This document shows, in pieces, positions 6,721 to 25,582 of a stretch of 32,000 bases of DNA. The DNA is taken from contig JASBSB010000001.1 of NCBI GenBank assembly GCA_030149205.1, positions 540,001 through 572,000 of the forward strand. Reading direction: 5' to 3'. Positions within the stretch are counted from its first letter, which is position 1. Each line of letters opens with the position of its first letter. A program made the translations under genes and the position numbers. The notes under the pieces were generated by a model that was given only the letters and a program-made list of their open reading frames with translations, had not been told where the DNA came from and searched no databases. Origin of the DNA: Candidatus Heimdallarchaeota archaeon. GTDB taxonomy: Archaea; Asgardarchaeota; Heimdallarchaeia; Heimdallarchaeales; Kariarchaeaceae.

Positions 6721-8472
6721 GTGATGAGCCACAAAGATAATAACCAACGTGAAAAAAATATATTTGGAAATAGCTTGTCGAAAGGGTTGACTGTAATAAT
6801 TCTGATTGAAATCTTCCTAATTAGCTTAGGAACCTCTTCAAACAGCTTTATCATACCCTCAAGTAGTCATTATCAGAGTCCTATTAATATGAGTGTGAAT
6901 CAAGGCAGTTCAATTGATCTAACACTAAATATATCCAAAATAAACATAGAAAGGGGAAACAATTTTTTCATCCTTTATGGAGTCACGAATAAAACAAATC
7001 CAACCCAGTACTTATCTGGCTACGAGTTTCACCTCTACACAAAAAAAACTTCCAGTAACAGTTCAATTACCCTGTTGAATGGTACCTCTTCTAACTTTTT
7101 AGGAAATTTTACTGTAGAAACTTACTTTTCAGAAAAACCTCTAACAGTTGGGAACTATTCACTGTTTTTAGATGTAAACACAACAAAAGGTATCGTGTCT
7201 AAGAATACCACATATAGTATCTTTGCTAGTCCCCAAGCTAATGTAATTTTCCGATTTTTCCCAGGAAGTAACCTGAATGTAAATTTAAACCAACTCGTTA
7301 ACGTTTCTCTAATCATTGAAAATATAGGGGAATCGAACGCATTCAATGTCTCTAGTATTGTTCAAAGTTTAAACGAACCAATCGGGATAAATGAAACTAT
7401 ATTTCCAGTTAATATGGCAATCCTCACTCCAAATAAAAGAATACAACTCAATTTTACTATCAAACCAACTAGGGTAGGATTAGGCGCTTTAGACCTGCTA
7501 ACCTCTTATTCAACTATAAACAATGTGAAGACGCTGAAAACAATCCAACTATTCATTACAGTTAAACCAAAGTTAGTAGTTGAATTTAACCCAAAAGATC
7601 AACTCCTATTTTCGAACACTACAACAGTATCTGTTCAAATAAGAAACCTTGAGAACTTTTCTGTAATTATTTCGATCTCCTTAACGTCAGACCTAATTAA
7701 CTTTAACCAACCGATTGAAACAAAAGCTCATGAACTTCCAGCTCTTTATACTCAAAATATTGAATTCATTGGAAATGTATTAAAAACTGGAGCCGCGTCA
7801 TTAACACTTACTGTAATTTTCTATGATCAGGACGGGAGTGGCTCAATCCCTATATTTATTATAACAAGAATTGTGCTCATTCAATCCAACCAAATCCCCC
7901 CGTCTCTCTTGACTGATTATTTACTTTTAGTTGTCCAGCTACTTGGTTATATCTCACTCGCAATATTGATTTTAGGGAGTGTATGGCTTTATTTTGACAA
8001 AGAGAACAGGTATAAACTTATTTCAAGAGTTATTCCCAAGAATCCTGCAGATCGACTGAAATTACCAGGTAATTCTATAATTGTAGATGGTTCAAATGTC
8101 GCTTGGGAGATTCCCGAAAAAGGTAGAGCAAATTTGAATAATTTAGACCTAGCAATTAAAACGCTTAAGAATAAGGGATTCAAGGATATTGTTATTGTGG
8201 TAGATGCTGCCCTGAGATATCAGGTTCAAAATAAAGATCAGTTTGACAAATTGGTGAAAGAAGGAAAACTTAAGGTAATGCCTGCGAAAGTTAATGGAGA
8301 CCAGTTTATCTTGAGGTTAAGTGATGAACGGAATGCCTTCATCTTATCTAATGATTTATTCAAAGAGTTCAGAGAAGAATTTACAAACATTGATGATAAG
8401 AGGGTACCGTATACGATTTTAGATGGAATATTATATTTACATCCTCTCGCAACCGATCATAAGAGTGAATGA
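6721..8472 (+). CDS. Single-pass membrane protein: signal/TM, glycosylated beta-rich ectodomain, TM helix, cytosolic Zc3h12a/Regnase-like PIN (NYN) RNase domain
   Basis: Hydrophobic N-terminus (aa ~22-40); many N-x-S/T sequons in aa 60-330; TM DYLLLVVQLLGYISLAILILGSVWLYF (aa 399-425); then IVDGSNVAW (D456), VVDAALRY, NGDQFIL, ILSNDLFKEF. Confidence 0.8.
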   Translation: MMSHKDNNQREKNIFGNSLSKGLTVIILIEIFLISLGTSSNSFIIPSSSHYQSPINMSVNQGSSIDLTLNISKINIERGNNFFILYGVTNKTNPTQYLSGYEFHLYTKKTSSNSSITLLNGTSSNFLGNFTVETYFSEKPLTVGNYSLFLDVNTTKGIVSKNTTYSIFASPQANVIFRFFPGSNLNVNLNQLVNVSLIIENIGESNAFNVSSIVQSLNEPIGINETIFPVNMAILTPNKRIQLNFTIKPTRVGLGALDLLTSYSTINNVKTLKTIQLFITVKPKLVVEFNPKDQLLFSNTTTVSVQIRNLENFSVIISISLTSDLINFNQPIETKAHELPALYTQNIEFIGNVLKTGAASLTLTVIFYDQDGSGSIPIFIITRIVLIQSNQIPPSLLTDYLLLVVQLLGYISLAILILGSVWLYFDKENRYKLISRVIPKNPADRLKLPGNSIIVDGSNVAWEIPEKGRANLNNLDLAIKTLKNKGFKDIVIVVDAALRYQVQNKDQFDKLVKEGKLKVMPAKVNGDQFILRLSDERNAFILSNDLFKEFREEFTNIDDKRVPYTILDGILYLHPLATDHKSE

Positions 8473-8521: not shown

Positions 8522-10135
8522 TTGTTTCTTGTGAAATTTGAGATTTTAATAGGATTATTGCTCATTTCAGTGCTAAACTCTACATCTACACCTGATATTG
8601 TTACCTCTTTAGAAGATGATTCGTTGATACTTAAACCCAAATCTTCTACAAACAAAAATATTATTTTTATGATAGGAGATGGAATGGGTAGCGAAGAAAT
8701 AAAGCTCGCGAGCTTAATAGAATATGGAATAATTAATGGATCCATTTTTGAAGAGTTCCCTAGTCAGGCATGGTATTCTACTGATGATATTCACGGAAAA
8801 ATAACAGATAGTGCAGCTTCTGGAACTGCTTTGGCAACGGGCCAGCTGACGGCAAATTCGATGGTTGGGATTGACACAAAATCTGTTCCAATCAAGACAA
8901 TTCTGGAATATTTAAAAGATGATTTTAATTATTCTACTGGTATTGTTACAACAACAGAGATTGCTCATGCAACACCTGCTACGTTTGCAGCACATGCAAA
9001 GCATAGAGATTTGAAGACCAAGATTAGAGATCAGCTTCTTTCTCAAAACATAGACGTGGTACTCGGTGGTGGGTTAGGAGGAACCTACATAGGAGGAAGG
9101 TCAGGAGCCCAGAATTTGGCGAATAATCATAATTACACATTAGTTACCAACACTAGTGAATTAAACCAAATCTCAAATTCCACTGATTCCTTATTGGGTT
9201 TATTTGGGTATTATAATATAGATTACGAATTGGAAAGAAACCCCCAGGAAAGTCCATCGCTTCAAGAAATGACTAGCAAGGCTCTTCAATTGTTAGATTC
9301 AAAGAACAAACCCTTTTTCGTAATGATAGAAGGTGGAAGAATAGATCATGCAGGTCATCTGCTAAATTCATTTCAAAACAAAACTATCTACAATGCGTTA
9401 GAAACTATTAACTTCGAAAAATCAGTAAGGGTGGCATATGAATATGCGAAAGCTCATCCCAACACCATATTAATAACAACTGCAGATCATGAAACCGGGG
9501 GATTAAAAGTTCATGACTTTTCAAACCTTGACAAAACACTTCCTGATGATAAAAATAGTAGAAACAAAAATAACGAGATCAGATATAACCGATCATTACA
9601 GATAGATACTAGTTGGTTAACAACATCTCACACAGGTCAAAAAGTGAGGTTTTCAGGGTACGGATTCGATTTTAACACTTCGAAAATCCAAAAGAACACT
9701 GATGTGTTCTGGGCCCTTAATGAGGCGCTAGGTAATTTCCCTGTGATTCGAACAGACTATCCAAAATCTGGACAAATTGGAAAACTTAGTTTTAGAGTTG
9801 TAGGGTCTCAGTTAGAACCAATTAATTATAATTATAGAAGTACTGAAGTTCAAAGTGGTAAAGTTGTAATTGGTAATTGGACTGAGTCTACAAAAAATAC
9901 CACAATTACATTAACCTTTGAAAGTAGTGAAAACACATCAATTGTGGTTCAAATACTAGTTAAGGATGTGGAGACCTCTATTAAAACCAGCTCATTAAAG
10001 TTCCATCTGGCGATTTATAAGGGTCAAGCACCAATCAGTTCAACCAACAATGTATCATATCTAAATTCAATGAATCTTGTTTTAGTTTTAATATTTATTT
10101 CTTTGAAGTTACGAAAAATTAGAGGGACAAGCTAG
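8522..10135 (+). CDS. phoA: Alkaline phosphatase (PhoA family), secreted with a C-terminal membrane anchor
   Basis: IFMIGDGMG, ITDSAASGTALATG (catalytic Ser), HATPATF, FFVMIEGGRIDHAGH, TADHETGG; signal peptide; C-terminal hydrophobic segment plus KLRKIR. Confidence 0.92.
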   Translation: MFLVKFEILIGLLLISVLNSTSTPDIVTSLEDDSLILKPKSSTNKNIIFMIGDGMGSEEIKLASLIEYGIINGSIFEEFPSQAWYSTDDIHGKITDSAASGTALATGQLTANSMVGIDTKSVPIKTILEYLKDDFNYSTGIVTTTEIAHATPATFAAHAKHRDLKTKIRDQLLSQNIDVVLGGGLGGTYIGGRSGAQNLANNHNYTLVTNTSELNQISNSTDSLLGLFGYYNIDYELERNPQESPSLQEMTSKALQLLDSKNKPFFVMIEGGRIDHAGHLLNSFQNKTIYNALETINFEKSVRVAYEYAKAHPNTILITTADHETGGLKVHDFSNLDKTLPDDKNSRNKNNEIRYNRSLQIDTSWLTTSHTGQKVRFSGYGFDFNTSKIQKNTDVFWALNEALGNFPVIRTDYPKSGQIGKLSFRVVGSQLEPINYNYRSTEVQSGKVVIGNWTESTKNTTITLTFESSENTSIVVQILVKDVETSIKTSSLKFHLAIYKGQAPISSTNNVSYLNSMNLVLVLIFISLKLRKIRGTS

Positions 10136-10148
10136 GGCACACCTCAAT

Positions 10149-10180
10149 TCTTCTGTAAATTAAGCACTAATTTTTAATCA
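10149..10180 (+). promoter_or_regulatory. Conserved promoter element upstream of translin copy 1
   Basis: TCTTCTGTAAATTAAGCACTAATTTTTAATCA is 30/32 identical to 21377-21408 while the flanks diverge; TTTTTAAT starts 29 nt before the ATG in both copies. Confidence 0.6.
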
Positions 10181-10199
10181 AACCTCTCAGTGGTTGGAT

Positions 10200-10829
10200 A
10201 TGGAAGAACAACTTGCTTCCCAGATCACCAAGATTGTCGAGGGTATAGTAACTGATTTAGACGAATTGGATGAACTCAGAGAAGATGTTATTGCTTTGTC
10301 TCGAAAGTTAAATAGAATGTCAGGGAAGGCAATAGCAAGGATTGTGAATTTATCTCAAGAGCCCTCATTGATTAAGGGAGCAAGAGAATTCAAAACTGCC
10401 CTTGATATTAAGTTGTCAAAATTTACACCGTTTTTTGGGTGGAACACTGTTAATGATGGACTTGAAGAATTTACTGAGATGGAACTTCTTTATGCGATAA
10501 TCTCGGATCGAGAGCTTCCCTCTCCACAATCATTAAATATACCAAGCTCTATTTGGATAAATGCTTTCTGCGACACTATCGGAGAACTAAGAAGGGTTAT
10601 ACTTCGCTTGTTAATCTCACAAAAGGTTGAGAATGCAAGAAAATACCTTGATATAATGAATCTAATGTTTGAAAATATTATTGGGATAGAGTATGGAAAA
10701 CATGTGGCTGGAAATCTTAGGAAAAAAATTGATTACCTGAGAGTCACTATAGAGAGAACTGAGAGTGATTTCTTACATTCTATGCTAGGGAATCAAATTC
10801 AAGACAGTTTGGATGCAAGCGAGGATTAA
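10200..10829 (+). CDS. Translin/TRAX family protein, copy 1
   Basis: REDVIALSRKL, GLEEFTEMELL, CDTIGELRRVIL, LRKKID; all-helical, 209 aa. ATG at 10200 matches the start of copy 2. Confidence 0.85.
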   Translation: MEEQLASQITKIVEGIVTDLDELDELREDVIALSRKLNRMSGKAIARIVNLSQEPSLIKGAREFKTALDIKLSKFTPFFGWNTVNDGLEEFTEMELLYAIISDRELPSPQSLNIPSSIWINAFCDTIGELRRVILRLLISQKVENARKYLDIMNLMFENIIGIEYGKHVAGNLRKKIDYLRVTIERTESDFLHSMLGNQIQDSLDASED

Positions 10830-10832
10830 AAC

Positions 10833-11225
10833 ATGAAATTGACTGGAGTTGTCCAAGAAGGCAAAGGAGAAGGTGCAAAATTTATTTCACTCCCCACCTA
10901 TGATAAAATTTTTACTAAGCTACTAGGGTCTCAACCATTTCCTGGAACATTAAATGTGAAGATATCTGAAGAAGATGGAAGAGTTGTTACAGAGTTATTT
11001 AACAAAAAGGGTCAGAGATTTGAGGAGCTATACTTTCAAAATAAGAAGATGGGAGACATAATAGTCATCCCATGTGAAATTGGAGGCTTGTCAAATCATA
11101 AATCAGTAATTGTACGACCGCTTTTGACCACTCATCATATCGATATAATTGAGATTGTTTCTTCTGCACATATTCGGGATATTTTAAATTTGAAAGACCA
11201 AGATCAAATCACGGTTGTTGTTTAA
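10833..11225 (+). CDS. ribK: CTP-dependent archaeal riboflavin kinase, copy 1 (intact)
   Basis: GVVQEGKGEGAKFISL, PFPGTLNV, EIVS..HIR..LNLKDQDQITV; 130 aa. Confidence 0.88.
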   Translation: MKLTGVVQEGKGEGAKFISLPTYDKIFTKLLGSQPFPGTLNVKISEEDGRVVTELFNKKGQRFEELYFQNKKMGDIIVIPCEIGGLSNHKSVIVRPLLTTHHIDIIEIVSSAHIRDILNLKDQDQITVVV

Positions 11226-11781
11226 TTAATAAATTACTACAAAATACAAGTCTAGTAGATTTACTTCAGTATCTTTTATCTGTATTCCGTATCCTAGAGA
11301 TGATAAAATATGACCTGAGTTCCCCCCTTATATATTTTTTTGACACCACCTAATGGAGTTAAATGTTTCCAACTATTCCCAGTAATAATGTAACCTGCAT
11401 GAGGAGAACTCCCATCTTTGCCATCTGTTGCCAACCCAATAAAGAACAGGTCCTGTGTTCCTTTCAATTTTTCACTCATAAGTGTTGCGAGAGAGGAAAC
11501 CCTTCCACCCTTATAATTAAACGCTGGACTTGGAAGCATAACTACAGGTTCACCCATCCAGATTAATGTTGTCTTGAGGTTAGTTGAGCTTGAGTCAACC
11601 TTGGTCTTAATTATGTTTATCATGTTCTCAGCAACCGATTCTACATCACCTGATAGATTTACATCAATTACTTCAGATTGAATTTTTAGCTTCGAAAGTT
11701 CATCAATTAAATGATCTGCAAAGATCTGACGAGAACAAATTACCTTGAAATGATGATTTTGAGGTAGCTCAAATTCATATG
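11226..11781 (-). pseudogene. 3' part of the MOFRL/glycerate-2-kinase-like gene, copy 1
   Basis: Reads YEFELPQNHHFKVICSRQIFADHLIDELSKLKIQSEVIDVNLSGDVESVAENMINII..MGEPVV..ATDGKDG, colinear with aa ~259-440 of 22454-23776. A 1-bp deletion at the C6 run (11322-11327) shifts the frame near the end. Confidence 0.85.
11768..11781. repeat. Left att-like imperfect direct repeat of the island
   Basis: CTCAAATTCATATG versus CTGGAATTTATATG at 19302-19315 (11/14); both encode the Y(E/K)F(E/Q) segment of the split gene. Confidence 0.55.
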
Positions 11782-12103
11782 GAAGATAAGCATAAGATGT
11801 GTTTCATGAATCCTCACCATTTTGATTCTGCTCGAAAAACAGAAAGAAATTGTCTCTCCAACCTCTTAGGATTCTTTATCCTGTCCAATTTTTTCATTGA
11901 AATGAACAATAGGTTTGATTTTTCGGTGGTCTTTTACATCCCTGCTTCTGTACCTGTGAACAATGGAGTTCTGTGGAGTCTTTCTAAATCTGCTACTTAT
12001 TTTTCCTCTCAATTTATGCAGATTAATGCGAAATATTTTTCCTGAGATAGGAGATGTGTTAAGTTCGATATGACCCTTCTGAATCATATTGGAAGATAGG
12101 TCT

Positions 12104-12139
12104 GTTGCAACCGTTGTAAAACTCTCTAGGGATTGAACT
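12104..12139 (+). CRISPR. Solitary CRISPR-like repeat (R0), possibly followed by a 38-nt spacer and a collapsed repeat at 12178
   Basis: GTTGCAACCGTTGTAAAACTCTCTAGGGATTGAACT, 31/37 to R1 (13876). GTAGCAAAAGGGGATT begins exactly 38 nt after it. Confidence 0.65.
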
Positions 12140-12233
12140 TTTCATCAGTTACAAATTATTTTGGAACCATATATAATGTAGCAAAAGGGGATTAATATTA
12201 AAACTTATTAAATTTATTTTTACTGATTAAATA

Positions 12234-13364
12234 TTGAAAAGCACACTTTATTCATTAGTTTTCTTATTGCTTTTATTTAACACCACTAATGCAGCATTTA
12301 ATTATAGTCTTTCCCAAAATCACACTATAGGCACTTGGGATAAGGCTGGGAATGGTAACCTACTTAACAATCCAACCTCCATTTTTCAGGATCATATAAA
12401 CGATACCTTTATTGTCTCAGACTCACAAAATGGAAGAGTATTACAGTTTAATTCAAGCACATGGAACAAGATTCATGAAATTACACCCCTTTACCCAAAT
12501 CTAACCAAAGTAAAAACAGTTTATGATACAATACTACAAAGAAATGGAACATTTACCTCTATACTTGCCAAAGGAAGAATTATCTCATATCAACTTGATG
12601 GGAAAATAATTCAATCAATAACTATCCCTTTTCTCCCTGATGATACTGTTTTTTTTCAAAATGGAAAGTATGTTCATTTAGGCTATGACTCAGTTGAAAA
12701 TAAAATATTGGTACAGTTTCCACTTACAATTAATGGTGTAAGAAGAGTTAGAGTTACAACGCTAGAAACAATAAAATTGAATATGTCAGAAAGTAATTTT
12801 CTGACAAAAGACATTTATGCGGAGTCTCAATTTTCATATATCGATGGTTCACCTGCCGCTTTAAGTCAATTCTATTATCAAAACGGAACAGTAGCCTTAC
12901 AAATAAAAAAATTTGGCATGATCAATGGGAAATACAATATAACATCAACTTTCTTAGTCCCTTACGCATCTATAGGGTCAATGACGGGATGGCTAAAATT
13001 GAAAAATGGATACTTGTTTTCCACAGCAAATGGAGTTTTAGTCTATGACCTTATGATGAATCTAGTTAACAAATTTAATGACTTAAATGGTTTTGGCAAA
13101 TTTGACCAAGTAAGTTCCATAGTATATGATCCAATTAGCAACCTAGTTATCTTATCATTGGCTTCAAAAAATTTTGTTATTGGAATTAAGGTTCTTACCC
13201 TTACATTAGATCCCACTGTTTCTAACTCAGCAACACAGACTGAGTTGTTAATTTGGATACCTGTAACTTTGCTTAGGCTAATAGTTTTAGCTGTTATATT
13301 GATAACTATAATACTAGTAATTATAGTTATCAAACGCAGATTTATTGTTAATAGATCTGCTTAA
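12234..13364 (+). CDS. Membrane-anchored surface protein with NHL-like beta-propeller repeats
   Basis: Signal peptide; LLNNPTSIFQDHINDTFIVSDSQNGRVLQF (NHL consensus) and KFDQVSSIVYDP; C-terminal TM plus KRR. Confidence 0.7.
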   Translation: MKSTLYSLVFLLLLFNTTNAAFNYSLSQNHTIGTWDKAGNGNLLNNPTSIFQDHINDTFIVSDSQNGRVLQFNSSTWNKIHEITPLYPNLTKVKTVYDTILQRNGTFTSILAKGRIISYQLDGKIIQSITIPFLPDDTVFFQNGKYVHLGYDSVENKILVQFPLTINGVRRVRVTTLETIKLNMSESNFLTKDIYAESQFSYIDGSPAALSQFYYQNGTVALQIKKFGMINGKYNITSTFLVPYASIGSMTGWLKLKNGYLFSTANGVLVYDLMMNLVNKFNDLNGFGKFDQVSSIVYDPISNLVILSLASKNFVIGIKVLTLTLDPTVSNSATQTELLIWIPVTLLRLIVLAVILITIILVIIVIKRRFIVNRSA

Positions 13365-13875
13365 TTAGACAAATAAATTTATAGTCTCCTCAAATGGTTC
13401 GAAAAACAGTCTGAAGATAGAAAATCTGAATGTTACCCTGTTCAAAAGCTGATCTAAAGGTCGCTTTATTTTATCTGCATATCTTACCCATTCTCAAACC
13501 TTTAGCTTTCAAAGAAAAGGAATCATCATTACTTGAATTACAATTTAGTTTGTTTTTAATTTTCAGATGATACAAATTGTTCATACGAAGAGATTATATT
13601 TTAAAAGGCAAATGTGAAGATAAGGAATGGCTCTAAATAATAAATAGTATTATTTCAGTGAACTGTAGAGGGTGGAAAAATTGTGGAATTCAATAAATTT
13701 AATGATGTTTTATTTTAATAACTCAGATATTTTTCCCACAAAACCGGTAAATATTGTGTAATTCCTTATACATTTTCTGGACCAGAGAATGCCAAAAATT
13801 GAAAATTTCACTGCATTGTTTCTGTGATGAAATTTGAAATACATAAATACAAGGCTTCCTCATGGAAGACACAGG

Positions 13876-14061
13876 GTTGCAACCATTGTAAATCCCTTCT
13901 AGGGATCGAAGTCTGTAACAGTATGTAAGCAGATACTCCTTAGATGCGTTGTTGCAATTGTGTTAGAACCCTTTTAGGGATTGAAACTGCTTGGCTTTAT
14001 ACTTTGCTAAATGTTGACGGATCAAGTTGAAACTGGCTTAGACCCTTGTAGGGTTTGAAAT
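13876..14061 (+). CRISPR. Degenerate CRISPR mini-array: 3 repeats, 2 spacers, no cas genes in the window
   Basis: R1 13876-13912 GTTGCAACCATTGTAAATCCCTTCTAGGGATCGAAGT; R2 13951-13987 GTTGCAATTGTGTTAGAACCCTTTTAGGGATTGAAAC; R3 14026-14061 GTTGAAACTGGCTTAGACCCTTGTAGGGTTTGAAAT. Period exactly 75 bp, both spacers 38 nt; ~510-bp AT-rich region upstream. Confidence 0.8.
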
Positions 14062-14113
14062 TAAAGGGTTGATCTGAAATATTGGTTTAAATCGTTTTAA
14101 TGTTTACGGGATG

Positions 14114-14734
14114 TTATTCAATTCTACCTGGCACAATCCTTTTGTTTTCAATGAGGTAGTGTTTGTGTCCAGATTTATGCAGCGACTTTGAGTGACTAAC
14201 CACAACAATTGTCTTCCCTTGCTCGTGTAGTGAATTTAATATAGAAATGATTAGAGATATATTGTTTATGTCTAAGCTCGACGTGGGTTCATCAATGAAA
14301 AGGACATCTGGAGCATGCATTAGGCTATAGGCGAATGAGGATTTGATGAGTTCACCACCTGAAATCTCATCAGGATAGCTGTTTTTGACAATTTGTAGTT
14401 GAAATTCGCTTAACAGGTTTTCTGCTATACTTGGGTCTTCTTTTACAAACAGTAAGTTTTCATAAATTGTAAGGTAAGGATGAAGAAATGGTTCTTGTGG
14501 AATGTAGATGCATTTTTCTGGGTTCTTCACCACTATAGTTCCAGATACTGGACTTAATTCTTGAATCATTAGTTTGAGAAGGCTGGTTTTGCCAGACCCT
14601 GATGGACCACCAATGCTTATCCAATCATTTTGTTTTACCTTGAAATCAAGATTTTCGAAAACTGTCAAACTTAGATCTTTCCTGATAAAATATCTTAGGT
14701 CAACATTTTTCAAGCTGACAATAGTTTCAGGCAT
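14114..14734 (-). CDS. ABC transporter ATP-binding protein (LolD/MacB-like)
   Basis: GPSGSGKT, ISGGE, LFIDEPT, VSH. Start at 14734 (8-bp overlap with the upstream stop) preferred over 14749. Confidence 0.88.
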   Translation of the reverse strand: MPETIVSLKNVDLRYFIRKDLSLTVFENLDFKVKQNDWISIGGPSGSGKTSLLKLMIQELSPVSGTIVVKNPEKCIYIPQEPFLHPYLTIYENLLFVKEDPSIAENLLSEFQLQIVKNSYPDEISGGELIKSSFAYSLMHAPDVLFIDEPTSSLDINNISLIISILNSLHEQGKTIVVVSHSKSLHKSGHKHYLIENKRIVPGRIE

Positions 14735-15608
14735 TGTCTCCCATCTCATTCTTTTTCGGTGATAACTTTATGAAGCCATCCTTTAGGCTCATGGTGATTA
14801 TGTTTTTTATATCTAGTTTCTCCAGAGCATACTTTGGAAGATAGACCGCACCTTTTGAATCTACGGTTAGATCCACGTGAAGTCCATGCATAAGCTTTAA
14901 AATACCTTCTTCCTTTATTTCTGTGTTTGAGCGATCTATGATCCTGTCAAATCTTCCAAAATAGATTCCAAGTACTAGATTGCTGTACAATGAAATTTCT
15001 GGATCATGTGATGTGTAAACCAGTGTAATATCATTTGATTTGCATGATTCGATTATTTTTCTCATTACTTTGTGCTTTGTTGTTGAATCCAGAGAACTTG
15101 TTGGTTCATCCAGAATCAATATTTTAGAATTTTGCATCAGTCCCATTGCTAGACAGACCAATTGTTTTTCTCCACCCGACAGATGCATCACTGGTTGATC
15201 TATTAAATGAGAAATTTCAAGTTCTCTAAGAGTCTTGAGGATGTCTACGTTTTTATTGATGATAAAATTAACAAGTTCCATATTTTCCCTGACTGTTAAT
15301 TTGAAGATCAGATTTTCTTCCATTTTCTGTTTAACATAAAAGATGTATTCTGAGATGAATCTTTGACGGTCTTGTTGATTCATTTTATAGAGAGAGTTGC
15401 TGAGAATCTCAACGACACCTACATCTGGTTCTAATTGGCCTGCAAGCACGTTGAGCAGGGTTGTTTTTCCTGAACCGCTGTCTCCAGTGATTGTTACAAC
15501 TTCTGAGGATTTTATGACAAAAGACACGTTATTTAGAGCCAACAGATTCTCTTCGGGATGGAGCTTAGGTCCCTTATAGATAACTGTCATATCAGAGATA
15601 TTAATCAT
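14727..15608 (-). CDS. ABC ATPase (LolD-like) with a C-terminal AbrB/SpoVT-like domain
   Basis: GDSGSGKT, LSGGEKQ, ILDEPT, TSHD; C-terminal TVDSKGAVYLPKYALEKLDI..I.M..KDGFIKLSP. GGAGGT SD before the ATG at 15608. Confidence 0.85.
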   Translation of the reverse strand: MINISDMTVIYKGPKLHPEENLLALNNVSFVIKSSEVVTITGDSGSGKTTLLNVLAGQLEPDVGVVEILSNSLYKMNQQDRQRFISEYIFYVKQKMEENLIFKLTVRENMELVNFIINKNVDILKTLRELEISHLIDQPVMHLSGGEKQLVCLAMGLMQNSKILILDEPTSSLDSTTKHKVMRKIIESCKSNDITLVYTSHDPEISLYSNLVLGIYFGRFDRIIDRSNTEIKEEGILKLMHGLHVDLTVDSKGAVYLPKYALEKLDIKNIITMSLKDGFIKLSPKKNEMGDNA

Positions 15609-18468
15609 ACAATTGACCTCCAAAGGTTTGAGAGATGTAAAACACCAGGGTAAAAGAGCCAGTACCTATAAATACTGCTATAATGACTTGGAGGAGATAG
15701 TTAAAGAGTAGAGTGTTCACCATAGTGTATAATGTAACAGTCAAAAGGAGTTGAGTAAATATAACACCAAATAATAGAAAAATCATTACAAAGTTTATCA
15801 AATTCCACTTTATCTGTTGCTTTACTAATTTGTTCCTGATGAATTTATTGTGGTGAATTGCCCATTTAAGCTGCCAGTTCATAGACCTAGTATAAATGAT
15901 TAAATACAGAGTCAGAGGGATCAACATTTCAATCACAATATACAGAATATTGTTTAGATATCCAAATATGGGAAATTCTGGAAAGGTGGGGTGGTTCATC
16001 GATTTTATTGTAGGTACTGAGGATATCTTTAAATCCAGCATGTTGATAAATTTGTTATTGATCCTGTCCACTGTCCGTTCTGCATCCCCTGGGTTTGACA
16101 ACAAAACCTTGTAGATGTTGTTGGTGACGAGTAAAAACTGTTTTGAGAGGGTTTGTAGATTTTCTAATGACATTACAAAAATTGTTGATTTCTCTATTCC
16201 AAGTTCAGTGATAAAAGAGTTAATTCCGAAGAAAGAGTTTGTGGTATACAGCTGATTGATTTTTAGACTGAAGTAATTTGCTCCAAATGGGTCTGTGTTT
16301 TTGATTTGAATCTCTTTTCTGGAGGAATAATAATTTAAGTACTGAAAGTTATTTACCATCAAAATGTTGTTTGAATGCTCACTTAATTTTTTAAGAATGT
16401 TTAGGTCAGATGTCCAACTTCCAGTATTTAGTCTTGAGTTATACCTGATGCTTTGAATATATCTCTGCACATCAATACCTAATATATATCCACCAGTGTA
16501 ACTTTGCGATTTTCCAAGTTCATAGTCCTTAAAATAGAGATAGTTTAAAAGCATTGAATTTTGCACATTAGAGATATTGTCAAGCATCGGGTAAGCGAGA
16601 CTGGTATTAAGGTTCAAACCATGGATGGATATATCTGCACCAAGACTATATAGGTCTCTAGTAGAGATACTGTTTTGTATTCCTGTATTAGAGATAGTAA
16701 TGGCTGAAAATAGACAAAACAAAATTAATAGAAACATAATGACCCGTATTAAATTTGGTGAATTTTGTGAGTATCTGGCAAATGGGTAGACTTTTCCAAT
16801 TCGAGAGTTTGGATTATACTTACGGGGAATTAAAATTAACGAAAGAAGGAGCTTATACACAACAAATCCGTATAGCATCAACAAGAGCAGGCTTAAAATA
16901 ACGATAAGCAATAAATATTCCAAAGTTGATAGATTGAGAATTAAAATTTCTTGACTTGAAATTGTTAAAAAGAAACCAACTATAGTTGATGATAAGACTG
17001 TTAAAATACTCAACATTTGAAAAGGAAACTTTTGATTTAATCTCTCTCTGAACGTTTTCAAGCCTGATCTCTTGTGATTAAAAAATGTGGCTAAATTTAT
17101 AAGTACAAGCAACAGAAAGTAATAACTAAAGATGGATTTATAGGAGATTGAATCTTGTATCTGTAACCCTGTGAAAAGAGCAATTATAACACTTATTACA
17201 TAAATTGGAAGCAAAAAAACACCCAGAGTAAGAAGATCCAAAAGGCTGTTTAATTGATTTATTGAATGACCTTTATTTGTAAAAAATGCAAGGAACTGAC
17301 GCTTGGATTCTTCAAAGTTTGATTGATAAATTAGATATACCGCTGCAAAAATAATGTACAATATAATTGTAACTGTGGAATTAAGAGTCTGAACCTTGTT
17401 TTGGATTTCATTTTGTTTGTTGAGCACTCTTAACAAGGGAGCATCTAACAGAGTGTTTCCTAAGAACTTTAAGAAGTCAGTAGTTTGAGATTTAAATGTC
17501 TTAGAATTTGTAATTTTGTAAAAACTTGTGCTTAGATTAAAATACATTCTTGAGACTTGCTTAAATTTAGTAAAGTAATCTCCTAGACGTCTTGTGCCAA
17601 GTATCTTTTGAAAATCATCGATTGAGGTAAAGATGACCTGACCAGGATTAATGCCCACGGGGGTTAAGATTGAGTTTATTAACCTGTGAAGTGAGGTTCC
17701 ATTCAATTCAGTGGTATTATAAGGAAAAGTAAATTCTTGTGAATTTTTAATTGCTTGAACTCCACTGACTTTGACTTTGCTGTTGTTTGATAAAAACAGT
17801 CCCAAATTATCAGCGTATCTATCTCTTCCTAATCGAAGTATCCTGGCTTGAGTGCCTTCAAGATTTGATCCAGTTAGTTCAAAAAATTGAGCAGGATCAA
17901 TAAGAATCACAGATAGAGAGGTTTGAAGTTTGCTGATATAAGTGTCAGTATTCTGTAATTTTAGGGGTTTTGTTAGATTTAAAATGGCATTTGGTGCTCG
18001 TAAAACCAAAAAATCAAGTGAATAAAGACTTATAGAACCATAATTTGGGTCTTGAATATTGTATTTGTTTTGAGGTTGTAACTTCATTAATTCTTTTGTT
18101 GAGTTTATTTGAAGACCTGATATTTGATCTTGAATTATATTTTCTGTGAAAAAATGTCCAGCGGGAAAATATTCTGGATTTAACTGTCTATGAAAATTAC
18201 TTGTTACCTGATTTTGCGTGTACAAAATTTGAAAGCTGAAAATTAAAATCAAAAGACCTACTAGAACGAGTTTGAGTAAATCTGTACGTGAGTATTTTAA
18301 CAGTATTAAGAAAGGACGTTTTATTGGTTTGCCTCGGCGTAAATATAAGCCCCATAAGATAAATACAACAGGAATTATGAATAGTAAAGCTTCAAGCAGT
18401 AGATTATTTATGAATAAAGCAAGACTCAAAAAAATCAGGATTAAACTTGCTTGTAGATAATTACTCAA
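15601..18468 (-). CDS. FtsX/MacB-like ABC permease with two tandem ectodomain+TM modules
   Basis: 955 aa; N-terminal TMs, large N-rich loop, TM cluster, second loop (LYSLGADISIHG) and a C-terminal TM cluster; co-oriented and overlapping with two ATPases. Confidence 0.75.
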   Translation of the reverse strand: MSNYLQASLILIFLSLALFINNLLLEALLFIIPVVFILWGLYLRRGKPIKRPFLILLKYSRTDLLKLVLVGLLILIFSFQILYTQNQVTSNFHRQLNPEYFPAGHFFTENIIQDQISGLQINSTKELMKLQPQNKYNIQDPNYGSISLYSLDFLVLRAPNAILNLTKPLKLQNTDTYISKLQTSLSVILIDPAQFFELTGSNLEGTQARILRLGRDRYADNLGLFLSNNSKVKVSGVQAIKNSQEFTFPYNTTELNGTSLHRLINSILTPVGINPGQVIFTSIDDFQKILGTRRLGDYFTKFKQVSRMYFNLSTSFYKITNSKTFKSQTTDFLKFLGNTLLDAPLLRVLNKQNEIQNKVQTLNSTVTIILYIIFAAVYLIYQSNFEESKRQFLAFFTNKGHSINQLNSLLDLLTLGVFLLPIYVISVIIALFTGLQIQDSISYKSIFSYYFLLLVLINLATFFNHKRSGLKTFRERLNQKFPFQMLSILTVLSSTIVGFFLTISSQEILILNLSTLEYLLLIVILSLLLLMLYGFVVYKLLLSLILIPRKYNPNSRIGKVYPFARYSQNSPNLIRVIMFLLILFCLFSAITISNTGIQNSISTRDLYSLGADISIHGLNLNTSLAYPMLDNISNVQNSMLLNYLYFKDYELGKSQSYTGGYILGIDVQRYIQSIRYNSRLNTGSWTSDLNILKKLSEHSNNILMVNNFQYLNYYSSRKEIQIKNTDPFGANYFSLKINQLYTTNSFFGINSFITELGIEKSTIFVMSLENLQTLSKQFLLVTNNIYKVLLSNPGDAERTVDRINNKFINMLDLKISSVPTIKSMNHPTFPEFPIFGYLNNILYIVIEMLIPLTLYLIIYTRSMNWQLKWAIHHNKFIRNKLVKQQIKWNLINFVMIFLLFGVIFTQLLLTVTLYTMVNTLLFNYLLQVIIAVFIGTGSFTLVFYISQTFGGQLYD

Positions 18469-18804
18469 CTTTTATCTCTCCATTAGAATTAATTAACTTA
18501 TTAATCTTCCAGATTATAGACAGTTCATAAGTGTATTCAACTTTTAAATATCCATAAAATAGAAAGTCTTGAGATAAAGCCCTATTAATCTTCTGGGAGC
18601 ACTTAAATGTTAATTCTATTTTACCTAATAATTGGCTATATCTTGGAGTATTCAATAGATGAAATGAGTCAAAGTTCAATATAGCAATAAATTAAATTTT
18701 AACTTTTAAAAGATGTTGAAAGCACATTGTAATTTTGATAACCTAAACTTTATTAATTTAATTTTAGATTATTTCTATAAATTTGTGGAAATATTTGAAA
18801 TAAA

Positions 18805-19160
18805 TTAAATTAAGCCTTTCCTAAAATTAGTTTGCTGTTTCCTCAACCTCCTCTGATGGTTTTCCTCCAGTAGATTAACTGCCCTTTTTTTAGCCTGACT
18901 CGTTGAATATGTATACTTGTTAACTGTTGAGGTGTTTCCCATCAATTCTCCGAGTACAATGGGGCTCACCCCAAGGCTGCTGAGATGAGTGGCATAACTA
19001 TGAGCAGAGTAACTGGGGTGGCCTTGGTTTTATCTCCTGTTGTGTTTATTTTAGCTTTTGCCGTATATTTTATGACAATGACACGAATTGTGTTTTATCA
19101 GAAATTTTTTTCTTTTTTTTATATAAATATATCTGAGGGGTGGTTCTATCAATATATAAT
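18805..19160 (-). pseudogene. Frameshifted C-terminal remnant of a tyrosine recombinase/integrase
   Basis: Across frameshifts it reads ..KISDKT/IRVIVIKYTAKAKINTTGDKTKATPVTL/[R]HSYATHLSSLGVSPIVLGELMGNTSTVNKYTY..AKKRAVNLL, matching TPH.LRHS.ATHL...G.....ELLGH......YT. A 1-bp loss sits in the Arg codon; stop at 18807-18805. Upstream limit is approximate. Confidence 0.75.
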
Positions 19161-19301
19161 GAAATTCAATTGGTACGATAATGAAATTGAGATATTAGAC
19201 TCAAAAATAAAGGGGTCTGCGATATGTATGTGTTTCCTCTGATTAAATCATCCCTGATTGAAATTATGGAAAAGATGGAAGATTTTGATCTTTTTACAAA
19301 T

Positions 19302-19315
19302 CTGGAATTTATATG
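19302..19315. repeat. Right att-like imperfect direct repeat of the island
   Basis: CTGGAATTTATATG, 11/14 to 11768-11781. Confidence 0.55.
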
Positions 19316-20081
19316 CAATCTGTACTAACTCATTAAGAAGATGAAATTTATCTGGTAATTCCAGGGCTTCAAAAATAGTCCTTAACCAAATTGACACATA
19401 TTCTGAGATTCTTATTCCAGGGATAGTTGGTCCAGAACCTACATAGCTTGGATCATCATTTAACACATCTGAAACCACCCATGAATAAATGGTTAAATTT
19501 TCTAACCTTGCTGCAAGTTTTCCTCCATTGACAGAATCCAGAAACATTCTTACTTGATTAATCTGAAAAATATCTAACCCATTAATCATCCCTTCTTTGA
19601 CAATTGCATTATAGATTTTTAGATCTAAATCCAATTCTGGGATACTGAAAGCCGCGGACCCACCACCACTTGTCATTACATGTAAGATTGTATCTTGAGA
19701 AAGTTCAGTCAATTTGTTGAGTACTTTTCTCGAGGTTTCGACTGTGTAATCATCGGAAAACGGATGAGAAACAAAATGAACGTCCCAATCACTAGGAAGT
19801 GATAGTGCCCTAGGTTCTTCAACATATCCCCTGGTCTGAAGCACAATGGTTGGAGAAAAACCTGTGTGAGAAATTTCTTGCGCACTTTTCGCCATCTCTA
19901 ATGCGTTCTTGCCAATACAGAAGAGTGCTTGCTTATTTTTATTAAAGACCTCGGAGTTTTCTTTGAACAACATTCTTTTTGGGTGAATCTTTTGAATTGC
20001 TCTGATGAATCCAGATAGATGATCCCTATCCAGAAGCTGTAGTTCCTCAGATAACTCAATTGTTGGACGAAAATTGTACAT
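19302..20081 (-). pseudogene. 5' part (aa 1-260) of the MOFRL/glycerate-2-kinase-like gene, copy 1
   Basis: MYNFRP (ATG 20081) through QIAYKFQ is colinear with 22454-23776; the frame runs on into island DNA to a TGA at 19248. Confidence 0.85.
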
Positions 20082-21363
20082 AAAGACAATTTTAGAATAT
20101 TTAAAAGACGATTTCAACTATTCAACTGGACTAGTTACCACAACTGAAATCGCACATGCAACACCTGCAACATTTGCTGCACATGCTAAGGATAGAGATT
20201 TGAAGGTCAAAATAAGAGACCAGCTTCTTTCTCAGAACATAGACATATTACTTGGAGGAGGTTTAGGAGGAACCTATATTGGAGGAAGAACAGGAGCTAA
20301 GGACTTGGCCATTAAACACAATTACACATTAGTTACCAATACTACAGAGCTAAATGGTATATCAAACTCAACAGATCGATTGTTAGGGTTATTTGGTTAT
20401 TACAACATTGATTATGAATTAGAGAGAAATCCAAAGGAAAGTCCATCACTTCAAGAGATGACAACGAAAGCTCTTCAAGTTTTAGATTCAAAAAATAAAC
20501 CATTCTTTGTAATGATTGAAGGTGGACGAATAGACCATGCAGGTCATCTACTAAATAGCTTTGAAAACAAAACAATTTATAACGCCTTAGAAACAATTAA
20601 CTTCGAAAAATCAGTAAGGATTGCTTATAATTATGCTAAAGCTAACCCAAACACTATTTTAATAACCACTGCAGATCATGAAACAGGAGGGTTGAAGGTA
20701 CATGATTTTTCAAACCTTGACAAGAACCTACCCAACAAAAACTACAGCAGAATAAAAAACAATGAAATTAGGTATAACAGATCCTTACAAATTAATGCAA
20801 GTTGGTTAACGAGGTCTCACACAAATCAAAAAGTGAGGTTTTCAGGGTTTGGACATAACTTTGACACTTCCACAATTATGAAGAACAAAGATGTGTTTTG
20901 GGCTTTGAATGAGGCTTTAGGGAATTTTCCGGTAATACGAACGGACTATCCTGTTTCTGGAGCTGTTGGCAAGCTAAGCTTTAGAGTTATTGGTTCCGAA
21001 TCAGAGGGTATTAGTTATAGTTTTAAGAGAACTGAGCTTTCAACTGGGGAGACGGTAATGGGCAATTGGGTTCAATCTACAAGAAATAAGACAATTGAGC
21101 TAACCTTTGAAAGCGCTAAAAATACTTCTTTTGTTGTTCAAATTTTGGTTCGGGATTCGAAAACCAATCTTCAAACAAGCTCATTAAGGTTACATCTCTC
21201 TGTAATCAAACTTGAGAGTCCTAATTCAAAAACTACATCATCAAAACAAATTTCCCTTTCCACGAGTTCATCAACTAACCGACTACCATTAAATTTCGTA
21301 AATTTCATTGTTATCTTATCAATACTGACTTTATATTTAAGAAAAGAGAATTGGAAGAAATGA
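20080..21363 (+). pseudogene. phoA: 5'-truncated alkaline phosphatase, copy 2
   Basis: Homology to copy 1 starts at IKTILEY (copy 1 nt 8891). It lacks the signal peptide, the GDGMG metal ligand and the catalytic Ser (DSAA); the remaining frame is open. Confidence 0.85.
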
Positions 21364-21376
21364 GTTAAAGATCAAA

Positions 21377-21408
21377 TCTTCTGTTAATTAAGCACTTATT
21401 TTTAATCA
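21377..21408 (+). promoter_or_regulatory. Conserved promoter element upstream of translin copy 2
   Basis: 30/32 identical to 10149-10180, with the same spacing to the ATG. Confidence 0.6.
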
Positions 21409-21427
21409 GCCTTCTGTGTATTTGTTT

Positions 21428-22057
21428 ATGGACAAAGAGCTCCCTTCCCAAGTCACAATGGTTATAGAGGATATCCTAAATAATCTGAATGGGTTGGATA
21501 AACTCAGGGAAGAAGTGATTGCACTCTCTAGAAAGCTAAATAGAATGTCTGGAAAGGCGATAGCAAGGATGGTCAAATTATCAAATGAAAAATCATTGAT
21601 TGAGGAAGCAAGACAAATTAAAAGAACTCTAGATGACCAGTTAAAAAATTTCACACCAATTTTTGGGTGGAATACAGTAAATGACGGTCTTGAGGAATTT
21701 ACTGAGATGGAAATCCTTTTTGCCATCATCATGCAGCAAAATCTACCCTCACCCCAATCCTTGGATATTCCTAGCTCAATTTGGATAAATGCCTTCTGTG
21801 ACACTATAGGTGAACTTAGGAGGGTTATTCTGCGCTTGCTAATCTCAGGGAAGGTTGAGAAGGCCAGAGAGTATCTAGAAACAATGAATGTTATGTTTGA
21901 GAATGTTATAGGAATAGAATACGGAAAACATGTTGCAGGGAACCTTAGAAAAAAAGTTGATTACCTCAGGGTGACAATAGAAAGAACAGAAAGTGATTTT
22001 TTGCATTCAATGTTGGGAAACCAAATTCAAGACAGTTTAGAGACGAATGAGGAATAA
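21428..22057 (+). CDS. Translin/TRAX family protein, copy 2
   Basis: Same motifs as copy 1 (GLEEFTEME, CDTIGELRR); 209 aa. Confidence 0.85.
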   Translation: MDKELPSQVTMVIEDILNNLNGLDKLREEVIALSRKLNRMSGKAIARMVKLSNEKSLIEEARQIKRTLDDQLKNFTPIFGWNTVNDGLEEFTEMEILFAIIMQQNLPSPQSLDIPSSIWINAFCDTIGELRRVILRLLISGKVEKAREYLETMNVMFENVIGIEYGKHVAGNLRKKVDYLRVTIERTESDFLHSMLGNQIQDSLETNEE

Positions 22058-22060
22058 TTT

Positions 22061-22453
22061 ATGAAAATAAATGGAGTTGTTCAAGAAGGTAAGGGTGAGG
22101 GTGCTAAGTTTATATCACTTTCAGTATATGATAAAATCTTTACAAATATTTTGGGGAAGCAACCCTTTCCTGGAACCTTAAATGTCAGAATATCGGAAAA
22201 AGATGGAAAAGATATTTCTATCCTTTTTAATAAAAAAGGTCTAAGATTTGAAAACTTGTTTTATCAAGGGAAAAAGATGGGAGATATCATCATAATCCCC
22301 TGTGAAATTCAAGGATAGTTAGACCACAAATCTGTTATTGTAAGACCTCTGTTGACCACGCATAACATTGATATCATTGAAATTGTCTCAACCGCTCATA
22401 TTCGTATGGCACTAAATCTAGAGAATCAAGACCAAATCACTGTAATTGTTTGA
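22061..22453 (+). pseudogene. ribK: Riboflavin kinase copy 2 with one in-frame TAG (22316-22318)
   Basis: After TAG the frame continues LDHKSVIVRPLLTTHNIDIIEIVSTAHIR..QDQITVIV to TGA at 22451-22453, giving the same 130 codons as copy 1. TAG aligns with TTG (Leu) in copy 1. Confidence 0.8.
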
Positions 22454-23776
22454 TTAATAGAAAACCACAAAATACAAGTCTAATAGATTTACATCTGTAT
22501 CTTTTATTTGAATCCCGTATCCTAAGGAAGACAGAACATGACCAGAATTTCCACTTTTATAGATTTTTTTTACGCCTCCTAGGGGAGCTAAATGTTTCCA
22601 ACTATTTCCAGTTATAATATAACCTGCGTCAGGAGAGCTTCCATCTTTACTGTCAGTAGCCAAACCAATAAAGAACAAATTTTGCGTGCCTTTTAGTTTT
22701 TCACTCATGAGTGTTGCAAGTGAGGAAACTCTCCCACCCTTAAAGTTAAAGGCGGTATTAGAAATCTTTACAACTGGTTCTCCCATCCAAATTAAGGTTG
22801 TTTTCAAGTTAGTAGTACTTGTACTTGCCTTAATTTTAAGCGTCTTTAACATTCTATCAGCAACCTCTTCCACATTACCTTCCAAGTTAAGATCAATTAT
22901 TTCAGAATGGATTTTCAACTTTGAGAGTTCATCCATTAAATACTCAGCAAATATCTTGCGAGAACAGATTAACTTTTGTTTATGGAGCTCTGGGCTTTGA
23001 AACTCATATGCAATTTGAACTAATTCATTTAGAAGATGATAAGTTTCAGACAGTTCTAAGGCTTCAAATACTGTTCTAAGCCAGATTAAAACATATTCTG
23101 AGATTCTTATCCCAGGTATTGTGGGTCCTGAACCTACATAGCTTGGGTCATCATTCAAAACATCTGAGACAACCCAGGTGTAAATATGTAGGTTTTCAAG
23201 ACGAGCAGCTAATTTCCCACCTTTGACGGAATCGAGAAACATCCTTACCTGATTTATTTGAAAGATATCCAAACCGTTAACCATAGCTTCTTTGATAACT
23301 GCGTTGTAGATTTGTAAATCAAGGTCTAGTTCTGGGACACAGAAAGCCGCAGATCCCCCTCCACTAATCATGACATGCAAAACAGTGTCTTTTGGGAGTT
23401 CAACTAGTTTTTTGAGCACCTGTTTCGAAACTTCAACGGTGTATTCATCTGAAAATGGATGAGAAACAAAATAAATTTCCCAGTCATTAGGAAGGGTTAA
23501 TGATCTAGATTCATCAACATAACCTCTAGTCTGAAGAATAAATGACTGAAAGAAACCTGTGTGAGAAATTTCTTGTGCACTTAAAGCCATTTGAAGTGCA
23601 TTTTTCCCTATACAAAACAGTGCTTGTTTTTTTTGATTAAATACTTCTGGATTTTCTTTGAATAACATCCTTTTAGGATGAACCCGTTGAATAGCCCTAA
23701 TAAATCCAGAAAGATGATTTCTCGCTAGTATTTGTAGCTCATCAGGTAACTCATTTGGTGGCCGAAAGTTGTACAT
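22454..23776 (-). CDS. MOFRL/TtuD-family (glycerate 2-kinase-like) protein, intact copy
   Basis: IGKNA..MA, SHPF.D, ISGGGSA, INQVR..L..VKGGKLA, VSDV.NDDPS.VGSGPTIP, GGR, TD.KDG; several motifs diverge from the family consensus. Confidence 0.8.
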   Translation of the reverse strand: MYNFRPPNELPDELQILARNHLSGFIRAIQRVHPKRMLFKENPEVFNQKKQALFCIGKNALQMALSAQEISHTGFFQSFILQTRGYVDESRSLTLPNDWEIYFVSHPFSDEYTVEVSKQVLKKLVELPKDTVLHVMISGGGSAAFCVPELDLDLQIYNAVIKEAMVNGLDIFQINQVRMFLDSVKGGKLAARLENLHIYTWVVSDVLNDDPSYVGSGPTIPGIRISEYVLIWLRTVFEALELSETYHLLNELVQIAYEFQSPELHKQKLICSRKIFAEYLMDELSKLKIHSEIIDLNLEGNVEEVADRMLKTLKIKASTSTTNLKTTLIWMGEPVVKISNTAFNFKGGRVSSLATLMSEKLKGTQNLFFIGLATDSKDGSSPDAGYIITGNSWKHLAPLGGVKKIYKSGNSGHVLSSLGYGIQIKDTDVNLLDLYFVVFY

Positions 23777-23784
23777 GGATACAC

Positions 23785-24624
23785 CTATTTAGAATAGTCA
23801 TACTGCTCGGGTTCAAAATCTGGAGAAAATACATGCTTGACATTACCCGCTTCAATTGAGAATTCTGCTAATATTGCCTCTCGCCATTCTTCTGCGACCT
23901 CTTTTACCTTTTCCTCTGAGACTTTGGTTGAATACAGGTGTAAAGACAACCAATACTTCCCATTTGTTTTTCTTGGGTGTGTCTTGAAATAAATATCTGG
24001 ATATTTCTTCACAAATTTGTTAGTGATGTGAGATATTGTCGATTCTCCTGTACCGAAAAGTTCGAAGCCAAATTCATGAATTTCTGACCTACCAAAAGTT
24101 TCAACAAGAATTGGTATGATTTGGTTTTCTAGGATATCTTTCATTTCTGCGGGTACTCCTGGGAGTGAGAAAATTTTCATAGAATTATATTGGGTATAGA
24201 CGCCTGGGGCTGTCCCCTTTGTGTTAATCAGTGGTATACTGTCTTTTGGAAGGGTGGCCATTTTCATTCTCGATCCACTTAGTCGTCCTTTGCCAACTTT
24301 CTCTTCGATCATACTTATAGCATTTTCATTTGGTTCCAAAGGTCTTTTCATAAAGTCTGCTAAGACCTCTAGTTGAATATCATCATAAGTAGGACCAAGT
24401 CCACCCATTACAAACAATACATCAGGAGACCTTTGTTGAATCTCATTTAGAACCGAAATAATCAGTTTTCTATCATCTCCAATTGTCGTTTCTCTTTGAA
24501 TTGAATATCCTAGCTTAGTAAGTTCTAAGGCCACATAACTGAAGTTAGTGTTAACAGTCCTTCCAATCATCAATTCATATCCCAGACATAATATCTCTAT
24601 TTTTGGGGATGATGTTAAGCTCAT
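23785..24624 (-). CDS. CinA-like molybdopterin-binding-domain protein (competence/damage-inducible family)
   Basis: GYELMIGRTVNTN, ETTIGDD, GGLGPTYDD, NTKGTAPG, SLPGVPAEMK, GTGESTI. Confidence 0.85.
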   Translation of the reverse strand: MSLTSSPKIEILCLGYELMIGRTVNTNFSYVALELTKLGYSIQRETTIGDDRKLIISVLNEIQQRSPDVLFVMGGLGPTYDDIQLEVLADFMKRPLEPNENAISMIEEKVGKGRLSGSRMKMATLPKDSIPLINTKGTAPGVYTQYNSMKIFSLPGVPAEMKDILENQIIPILVETFGRSEIHEFGFELFGTGESTISHITNKFVKKYPDIYFKTHPRKTNGKYWLSLHLYSTKVSEEKVKEVAEEWREAILAEFSIEAGNVKHVFSPDFEPEQYDYSK

Positions 24625-25495: not shown

Positions 25496-25582
25496 GCTCG
25501 CTTAGCTTAGTCGGGAGAGCGCACGGCTGAAGAATTTTGTTTTGAAACCGTGAGGTCGCGAGTTCAAGTCTCGCAGCGAGCA
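25496..25582 (+). tRNA. tRNA-Phe(GAA) with a 14-nt intron at 37/38 (25533-25546); CCA not encoded
   Basis: Acceptor GCTCGCT/AGCGAGC, D stem GCTT/GAGC, anticodon stem CACGG/CCGTG with loop CT-GAA-G|intron|A, T arm GCGAG-TTCAAGT-CTCGC. Confidence 0.92.

Follow-up and report, generated by a model that had tools for sequence, protein, structure and literature searches.

At positions 13876-14061, the Asgard (Heimdall-type) archaeal DNA analyzed here contains a genuine CRISPR mini-array that has two spacers and a leader of its own and lacks local cas genes. The analyzed stretch (hereafter, the window) spans 32 kb, C4:540001-572000 of a 3.3-Mb genome in 12 contigs. We give about an even chance to the reading in which the mini-array belongs to the lineage of the host CRISPR arrays, is cargo on a degraded element, and has most likely been retained as a unit with fixed guides that the host Cas6 serves in trans. 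Arrays of this kind are already known, and what is unusual here is the Asgard host together with a pattern of frozen middle and drifted outer repeats. The strongest evidence of the origin of the locus and of its possible expression is a leader with a preserved promoter-like core, a feature absent from a preliminary description that had been made from the sequence of the window.

The three repeats (R1 to R3; Table 1) begin at intervals of 75 nt and enclose two spacers of 38 nt each. At 37, 37, and 36 nt, the repeats fall within the 23-50 nt typical of direct repeats separated by unique spacers of like length, and the spacer length lies inside the 36-40 nt range of the host arrays. R1 and R2 are identical at 26/37 positions and R2 and R3 at 29/37, and in all three repeats CCCT-N3-AGGG is followed by 8 nt (tails in Table 1), with changes relative to the canonical tag at 3/8 positions in R1 and 2/8 in R3. 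Every figure of the geometry reported in the preliminary description (75-nt period, 38-nt spacers, the 2 identity counts, and CCCT-TNT-AGGG plus 8 nt) was reproduced. According to folding analysis, R1 forms a 6-bp stem (MFE -8.3 kcal/mol) and R3 a 9-bp stem (MFE -9.7 kcal/mol, z = -2.45); R2 and both canonical host repeats form the 4-bp core stem alone, at about -4 kcal/mol. The array region has no coding content, with no open reading frame (ORF) exceeding 49 aa.

Throughout the 3.3-Mb genome, the hairpin motif with repeat-like flanks occurs outside the canonical arrays solely at this locus and at one site on contig C11. A genome-wide search with a covariance model built on the repeats returned R2 as its top match, recovered a decayed repeat elsewhere on the same inserted island (R0; see below), and yielded no additional repeat-like units. 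The mini-array was not reported by TRF, and Rfam detected R2 alone (CRISPR-DR5, 26.5 bits, below threshold), in agreement with the earlier guess that standard CRISPR finders would miss the array.

Table 1. Coordinates of the mini-array, its leader, the island carrying it, and related host loci. Positions without a contig prefix are those of the window.
Feature	Position	Strand	Remarks
Inserted island	11747-19302	.	7.5 kb; splits a glycerate-kinase paralogue
Second, more decayed unit	12104-12195	+	R0 (12104-12139), 38-nt spacer, collapsed repeat
CRISPR leader of the mini-array	13749-13875	+	~127 nt; homologous to both host array leaders
Leader core	13836-13859	+	24 nt identical to the array-1 leader; TATA-like CATAAATA at 13842-13849
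Leader-repeat junction	13860-13875	+	Eroded
R1	13876-13912	+	Diverged first repeat, 37 nt; 6-bp hairpin; tail ATCGAAGT
Spacer 1	13913-13950	+	38 nt; unique sequence
R2	13951-13987	+	Near-canonical middle repeat, 37 nt; canonical 8-nt tag ATTGAAAC
Spacer 2	13988-14025	+	38 nt; unique sequence; sole spacer with a canonical 5' tag ahead
R3	14026-14061	+	Diverged terminal repeat, 36 nt (one deletion); 9-bp hairpin; tail TTTGAAAT
Tyrosine integrase fragment	18865-19140	-	Frameshifted C-terminal piece at the right end of the island (from translation)
Canonical array 1	C8:9-1981, continued C11:30-515	minus (C8 part)	Found by genome search with the mini-array
Canonical array 2	C8:9225-12400		43 repeats
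Lone degenerate repeat	C11:2403-2439		R1-like tail ATCGAAGA

The leader ties the locus to the host CRISPR arrays. In a BLAST search, a query extending from the leader through R1 to R2 matched C8:1870-2115 (E 1e-23, 71% identity) and C8:9093-9336 (E 4e-18), so that homology of the leader and of R2 to the host arrays bears out the CRISPR origin that had been proposed for the locus. The mini-leader is identical to the array-1 leader at 91/130 positions (70%), compared with 113/130 between the 2 canonical leaders. Within this 70%-identical leader, the 24-nt core is the longest identical run (permutation p = 0.002). Its position ~30 nt upstream of R1, together with the BRE/TATA elements described in Sulfolobales CRISPR leaders (PMC6858448), suggests that the core is an archaeal BRE/TATA promoter, with a predicted transcription start a few nucleotides upstream of R1. 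The last 17 nt of the leader, by contrast with the canonical leaders, which agree with each other at 16/17 positions, match them at 9/17 and contain a 3-nt deletion, and the spacer-integration signals have probably been lost at this eroded junction.

When the mini-array was used as a query against its own genome, 73 matches were obtained, located in array 1, in array 2, and in one lone degenerate repeat. The canonical repeats of arrays 1 and 2 differ at 5/37 positions. R2 is identical to them at 35/37 and 34/37 positions, respectively, and each of its bases corresponds to the state in one array or the other, leaving no derived base; the respective values are 27/37 and 26/37 for R1 and 27/37 and 29/37 for R3. 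The preliminary description, which had the repeats diverged by 25% to 30%, was therefore right about R1 and R3, which have drifted, and wrong about R2. The host cas genes are encoded on other contigs. Between the 2 arrays on C8 lie genes for cas4, a cas2 fusion, a 946-aa protein, a 335-aa protein, and cas1, and beyond array 2 follows a type III-D-like set consisting of Csx7/Csx10-type RAMPs, Cas10, and Cas6 (C8:18718-19812). Contig C11 carries a type I-B module with Cas3, Cas5b, and Cas7b (Csh2). The 946-aa protein (C8:3530-6370, between cas2 and cas1) has a weak match to Cas1 alone (PADLOC, E 1e-4). The term Cas-less, as first applied to the locus, holds for the 32-kb window, among the ORFs of which no cas domains were detected, but not for the genome, which on C8 and C11 has a complete set of cas genes together with repeats of the same family. 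Thus, the class 1 system with a matching repeat that the preliminary description had proposed to look for is present, as I-B and III-D-like systems with Cas6, which makes the use of host Cas proteins in trans feasible.

Divergence from the canonical counterparts is unevenly distributed across the locus. The leader, R1, and R3 differ from theirs by roughly 20% to 30%, and the rate of the outer repeats is close to the lineage-specific divergence of the leader. Derived changes affect 9 positions in R1 and 7 positions plus one deletion in R3, compared with 0 in R2, for which the probability of 2 or fewer differences among 37 positions is 2.6e-4 at a rate of 30% and 2e-3 at 25%. Because R2 combines states of array 1 with states of array 2, a recent copy or conversion from either present-day array is unlikely. 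The 8 stem positions are unchanged in both R1 and R3, with a joint p = 0.0045 that is inflated by ascertainment, since the repeats were recognized through that same stem. The extended stem pairs, which had been described as covarying, amount to 2 single events, and in simulations conditioned on an untouched stem, strengthening of the hairpin to the observed degree had p = 0.29 for R1 and p = 0.034 for R3, constituting weak to moderate evidence. All these conservation tests draw on 3 repeats in one genome, at a locus found in no relative. Taken on these terms, the comparison points to constraint on the promoter, R2, and the hairpins during the greater part of the period following divergence from the canonical arrays, past constraint not being proof of present function. 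The original proposal that selection for processing fits the repeats better than random decay is supported in part by the nonuniform divergence (frozen R2, preserved core, intact stems) and gains weak to moderate support from the stem extensions.

The mini-array resides on an island that is a now-degraded integrative element. Homology to the intact glycerate-kinase paralogue ends at 11746 and restarts at 19303, and the island ends carry imperfect, att-like direct repeats, AAATTCATATG and GAATTTATATG. The cargo comprises the decayed R0 unit, a 376-aa ORFan, the mini-array, 2 ABC ATPases, a 955-aa ORFan, and the integrase fragment; the cargo genes are absent from the congeners and have no homologue in a large protein database. 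No homologue of the 376-aa protein was found, and the 955-aa protein matched only itself in a set of 5.8 billion proteins, with a single 23%-identical match within the order. The split kinase belongs to the first copy of a block duplicated in tandem long ago and encoding a phosphatase (an alkaline phosphatase), translin, riboflavin kinase, and glycerate kinase, the copies of which (8891-11746 plus 19303-20099, and 20080-23796) share ~75% nucleotide identity. The losses in the 2 copies are complementary, with kinase 1 split, phosphatase 2 truncated at its 5' end, and riboflavin kinase 2 shortened.

R0 and R1 are identical at 31/37 positions and have the leader end TGGAAGA in common, their local alignment scoring 44 against a shuffle maximum of 31. 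The Cas6-type hairpin of R0 is broken. Given that R0 has the derived 5' half and the leader end of R1, an R1-type unit was duplicated within the island. The derived 5' half common to R0 and R1 folds into a 6-bp hairpin of its own in both, and the R0 unit lies ~40 nt upstream of the 376-aa ORFan (start at 12234).

The sole other genomic copy of the integrase fragment is found at C11:1316-1561, between the array-1 trailer (~0.8 kb away) and the lone degenerate repeat, which hints at a past interaction of this element family with the host array. Capture of a leader-proximal piece of an array through such contact is a plausible, if speculative, route by which the island might have acquired its mini-array. 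The copy lies in a 1.9-kb islet (C11:516-2513) that separates the last perfect array-1 repeat from the degenerate repeat and adjoins the I-B module. Besides the integrase C-terminal fragment, the islet contains 2 paralogous small genes, ahead of which are motifs resembling the 3' half of the repeat (AGGGTCGAAAC, minus strand).

Several further features of the window were recorded outside the island. An 87-nt tRNA called at 25496-25582 (Rfam, 58.6 bits) received no defined type from ARAGORN, which gave it a 4-base anticodon; possibly it is an archaeal tRNA with an intron. Direct repeats of 203 and 201 bp (27694-27896 and 29340-29540; 95% identity) surround a 1.4-kb segment that contains a 347-aa ORF without a Pfam match and resembles another small insertion. 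Finally, positions 6721-8472 encode a 583-aa protein in which a long region without family assignment precedes a C-terminal Zc3h12a/NYN RNase domain (E 7e-16).

A search for the targets of the spacers, as suggested in the preliminary description, returned no protospacer from the host genome, the phylum, viral contigs, phages, or plasmids. Within the host genome, the spacers had chance-level matches only, of no more than 14 nt; no match with up to 3 mismatches was obtained in 400 genomes of the phylum, none in viral contigs (IMG/VR) with four exact 23-mers, and none at the spacers in phages and plasmids. Arrays on Pseudanabaena plasmids were rejected as targets, the similarity being confined to the repeat core, and a likeness of spacer 1 to the flank of the lone C11 repeat extended ~2 score units beyond the repeat itself and was taken as chance. 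These negative results pertain to collections in which Asgard mobile elements are poorly sampled. The unit itself was likewise sought among relatives: the mini-array, its leader, and its repeat family had no match in 40 related genomes, patterns for the leader core and the degenerate repeat family matched no public genome or metagenome contig, and patterns for the R1-type and canonical repeats matched no viral contig. The congeners are distant (44-45% identity between kinases), which renders synteny uninformative.

Among known systems, the closest kind is the mini-CRISPR array with a host-like leader carried by viruses or other elements, with orphan arrays served in trans forming the broader class. 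The Sulfolobales portogloboviruses SPV1 and SPV2 carry mini-arrays of 1-2 spacers preceded by host-like BRE/TATA leaders and encode no cas genes (Medvedeva et al. 2019, PMC6858448). The Asgard mini-array resembles them in having no more than 2 spacers, a promoter-containing host-like leader, repeats of the host family, and a carrier without cas genes, host Cas proteins presumably acting in trans. The carriage on mobile DNA that characterizes such mini-arrays is evident here from the gene-splitting 7.5-kb insertion, the end repeats, the integrase fragment, and cargo absent in the congeners. Unlike in SPV1 and SPV2, the island that carries the array is integrated and degraded and not an active virus, divergence in the outer repeats amounts to 22% to 30% and the junction is eroded, making spacer turnover unlikely, and the Asgard host has I-B and III-D-like systems, with no target in a related element found in the collections searched. 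Isolated arrays to which Cas proteins are supplied in trans, as well as eroded arrays borne by plasmids or integrative elements (e.g., Pinilla-Redondo et al., bioRxiv 10.1101/2021.06.04.447074; E. faecalis CRISPR2, PMC4580645), likewise lie distant from cas genes with a compatible system elsewhere in the genome, have a degenerate terminal repeat, and occur in a mobile-element context; in contrast to them, the present array is very short, is degenerate in both outer repeats with the middle one frozen, and has kept a clear leader homologue.

Two further classes of repeat-derived RNA share individual traits with the locus. CreA of CreTA, CreR, and other crRNA-like RNAs (Shmakov et al. 2023, bioRxiv 10.1101/2023.03.03.530964) are also encoded by short arrays with a degenerate distal repeat in organisms with I-B or composite class 1 systems, but are located inside or beside cas operons and have a single spacer that partially matches a promoter in the vicinity, next to a PAM, whereas the mini-array has 2 spacers, lies on contig C4 away from the cas loci, and has no seed match above chance. 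Matches to the 5' seeds of 10-12 nt were about as numerous as a crude estimate from base composition predicts, the excess for spacers 1 and 2 reaching ~4-fold at most, with none in the cas loci or the island, in a comparison of low power. RNA anti-CRISPRs and solitary repeat units (Camara-Wilpert et al. 2023, PMC10651486) likewise imitate CRISPR repeats, are carried on mobile DNA behind a promoter, and keep the stem-loop with the tag varying; the mini-array differs from them in not being solitary and in its regular spacers and canonical middle repeat. Of the roles considered in the preliminary description, CreTA/CreR-type regulation finds no support, for want of a seed match above chance and of a cas neighborhood, and neither does homing of a CRISPR-associated transposon: the island encodes no transposase, and its ORFs (2 ABC ATPases and proteins without a family) contain no transposase/TnsABC-like domain.

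In the reading we prefer, a fixed-guide unit would be transcribed from the retained TATA-type leader promoter, starting a few nucleotides upstream of R1, and the transcript would be cut at the base of the CCCU/AGGG hairpins by the host Cas6 encoded on another contig. Spacer 2 would receive a canonical 8-nt 5' tag (AUUGAAAC) from R2 and a stable 3' hairpin from R3, and is therefore the spacer most likely to serve the I-B and/or III-D-like effectors as a guide; in the tag of spacer 1, 3/8 positions would be changed. Owing to the eroded leader-repeat junction, the array probably no longer takes up spacers and would hence be a unit with fixed guides. By analogy with virus-borne mini-arrays (PMC6858448), its role would probably be the exclusion of a competing element or virus.

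It is quite possible, if on balance improbable, that the locus is instead an inert relic, a leftover leader with a few repeats of an old array that was carried or captured by the element and is decaying, its conserved parts reflecting chance, mutational heterogeneity, or past constraint. Much about the locus is what such a history would leave: the outer repeats and the leader have drifted about equally, by ~22% to 30%, the junction with the leader is eroded, the sister R0 unit on the island has neither an intact hairpin nor a second repeat, the integrase is a fossil, and the spacers found no targets in the host genome, phylum, viral contigs, phages, or plasmids. The degenerate terminal repeat R3 also fits, since such a repeat is usual even in ordinary CRISPR arrays. 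What uniform neutral decay leaves unexplained is the absence of derived bases from R2 (p about 1e-4 to 3e-4 at the rate of the leader), the 24-nt identical promoter core (p = 0.002), and the untouched stems, and the mosaic of both canonical types in R2 speaks against rescue by recent conversion.

Alternatively, the locus might make an RNA that does not guide an effector, either element-encoded decoy hairpins (R1, R3, R0) that soak up Cas6 or effector subunits in the manner of RNA anti-CRISPRs or a CreA/CreR-type regulatory RNA repressing a promoter of the host or the element through partial complementarity. The outer repeats keep or strengthen the Cas6-type stem-loop while the tag varies, and RacrIF1 requires its stem-loop but tolerates changes in the tag (PMC10651486); a promoter-like core lies directly upstream, the unit sits on the remnant of a mobile element, and archaeal loci of I-B or composite type often include degenerate mini-arrays that act in regulation (bioRxiv 10.1101/2023.03.03.530964). 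We consider a non-guide RNA rather improbable nonetheless, in view of the regular 38-nt spacers and one canonical repeat in place of a solitary one, the distance of the cas operons (C8 and C11, compared with C4 for the array), the lack of 5' seed matches of at least 12 nt above chance or of any in the cas loci or the island, and the failure to identify a small toxin gene nearby. Moreover, since the element is degraded, counter-defense would no longer benefit it. Chance similarity or a repeat unrelated to CRISPR, such as iterons or operators, has nothing in its favor except the small copy number and is barely credible for a locus that matches the host arrays across leader and repeats with E 1e-23, whose middle repeat is canonical at 35/37 positions, and whose motif with flanks is otherwise confined to CRISPR loci.

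A stronger form of the fixed-guide reading holds that the asymmetry of the array is itself adaptive, in a mini-array of the element that has been domesticated. The outer repeats would have been selected to diverge with the Cas6 hairpin kept or strengthened, thereby blocking recombinational loss and spacer insertion, and R2 would have been held in its ancestral state, the product being one "locked" guide for the I-B or III-D-like effectors or hairpin decoys that modulate Cas6. We regard this version as unlikely; if true, no unit of this sort would have been described before in Asgard archaea.

The integrase fragment past the array-1 trailer links an integrase-bearing element family to the host CRISPR locus. 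An inert mini-array would be nothing more than an orphan array in the usual process of erosion, and even then a useful warning that routine CRISPR finders miss such units. If active, it would represent a natural stabilized array, in which the outer repeats have diverged, a single repeat is canonical, and the integration junction is dead, and would mean that Asgard mobile elements, like Sulfolobales viruses, use the host CRISPR machinery through private leader-bearing mini-arrays.
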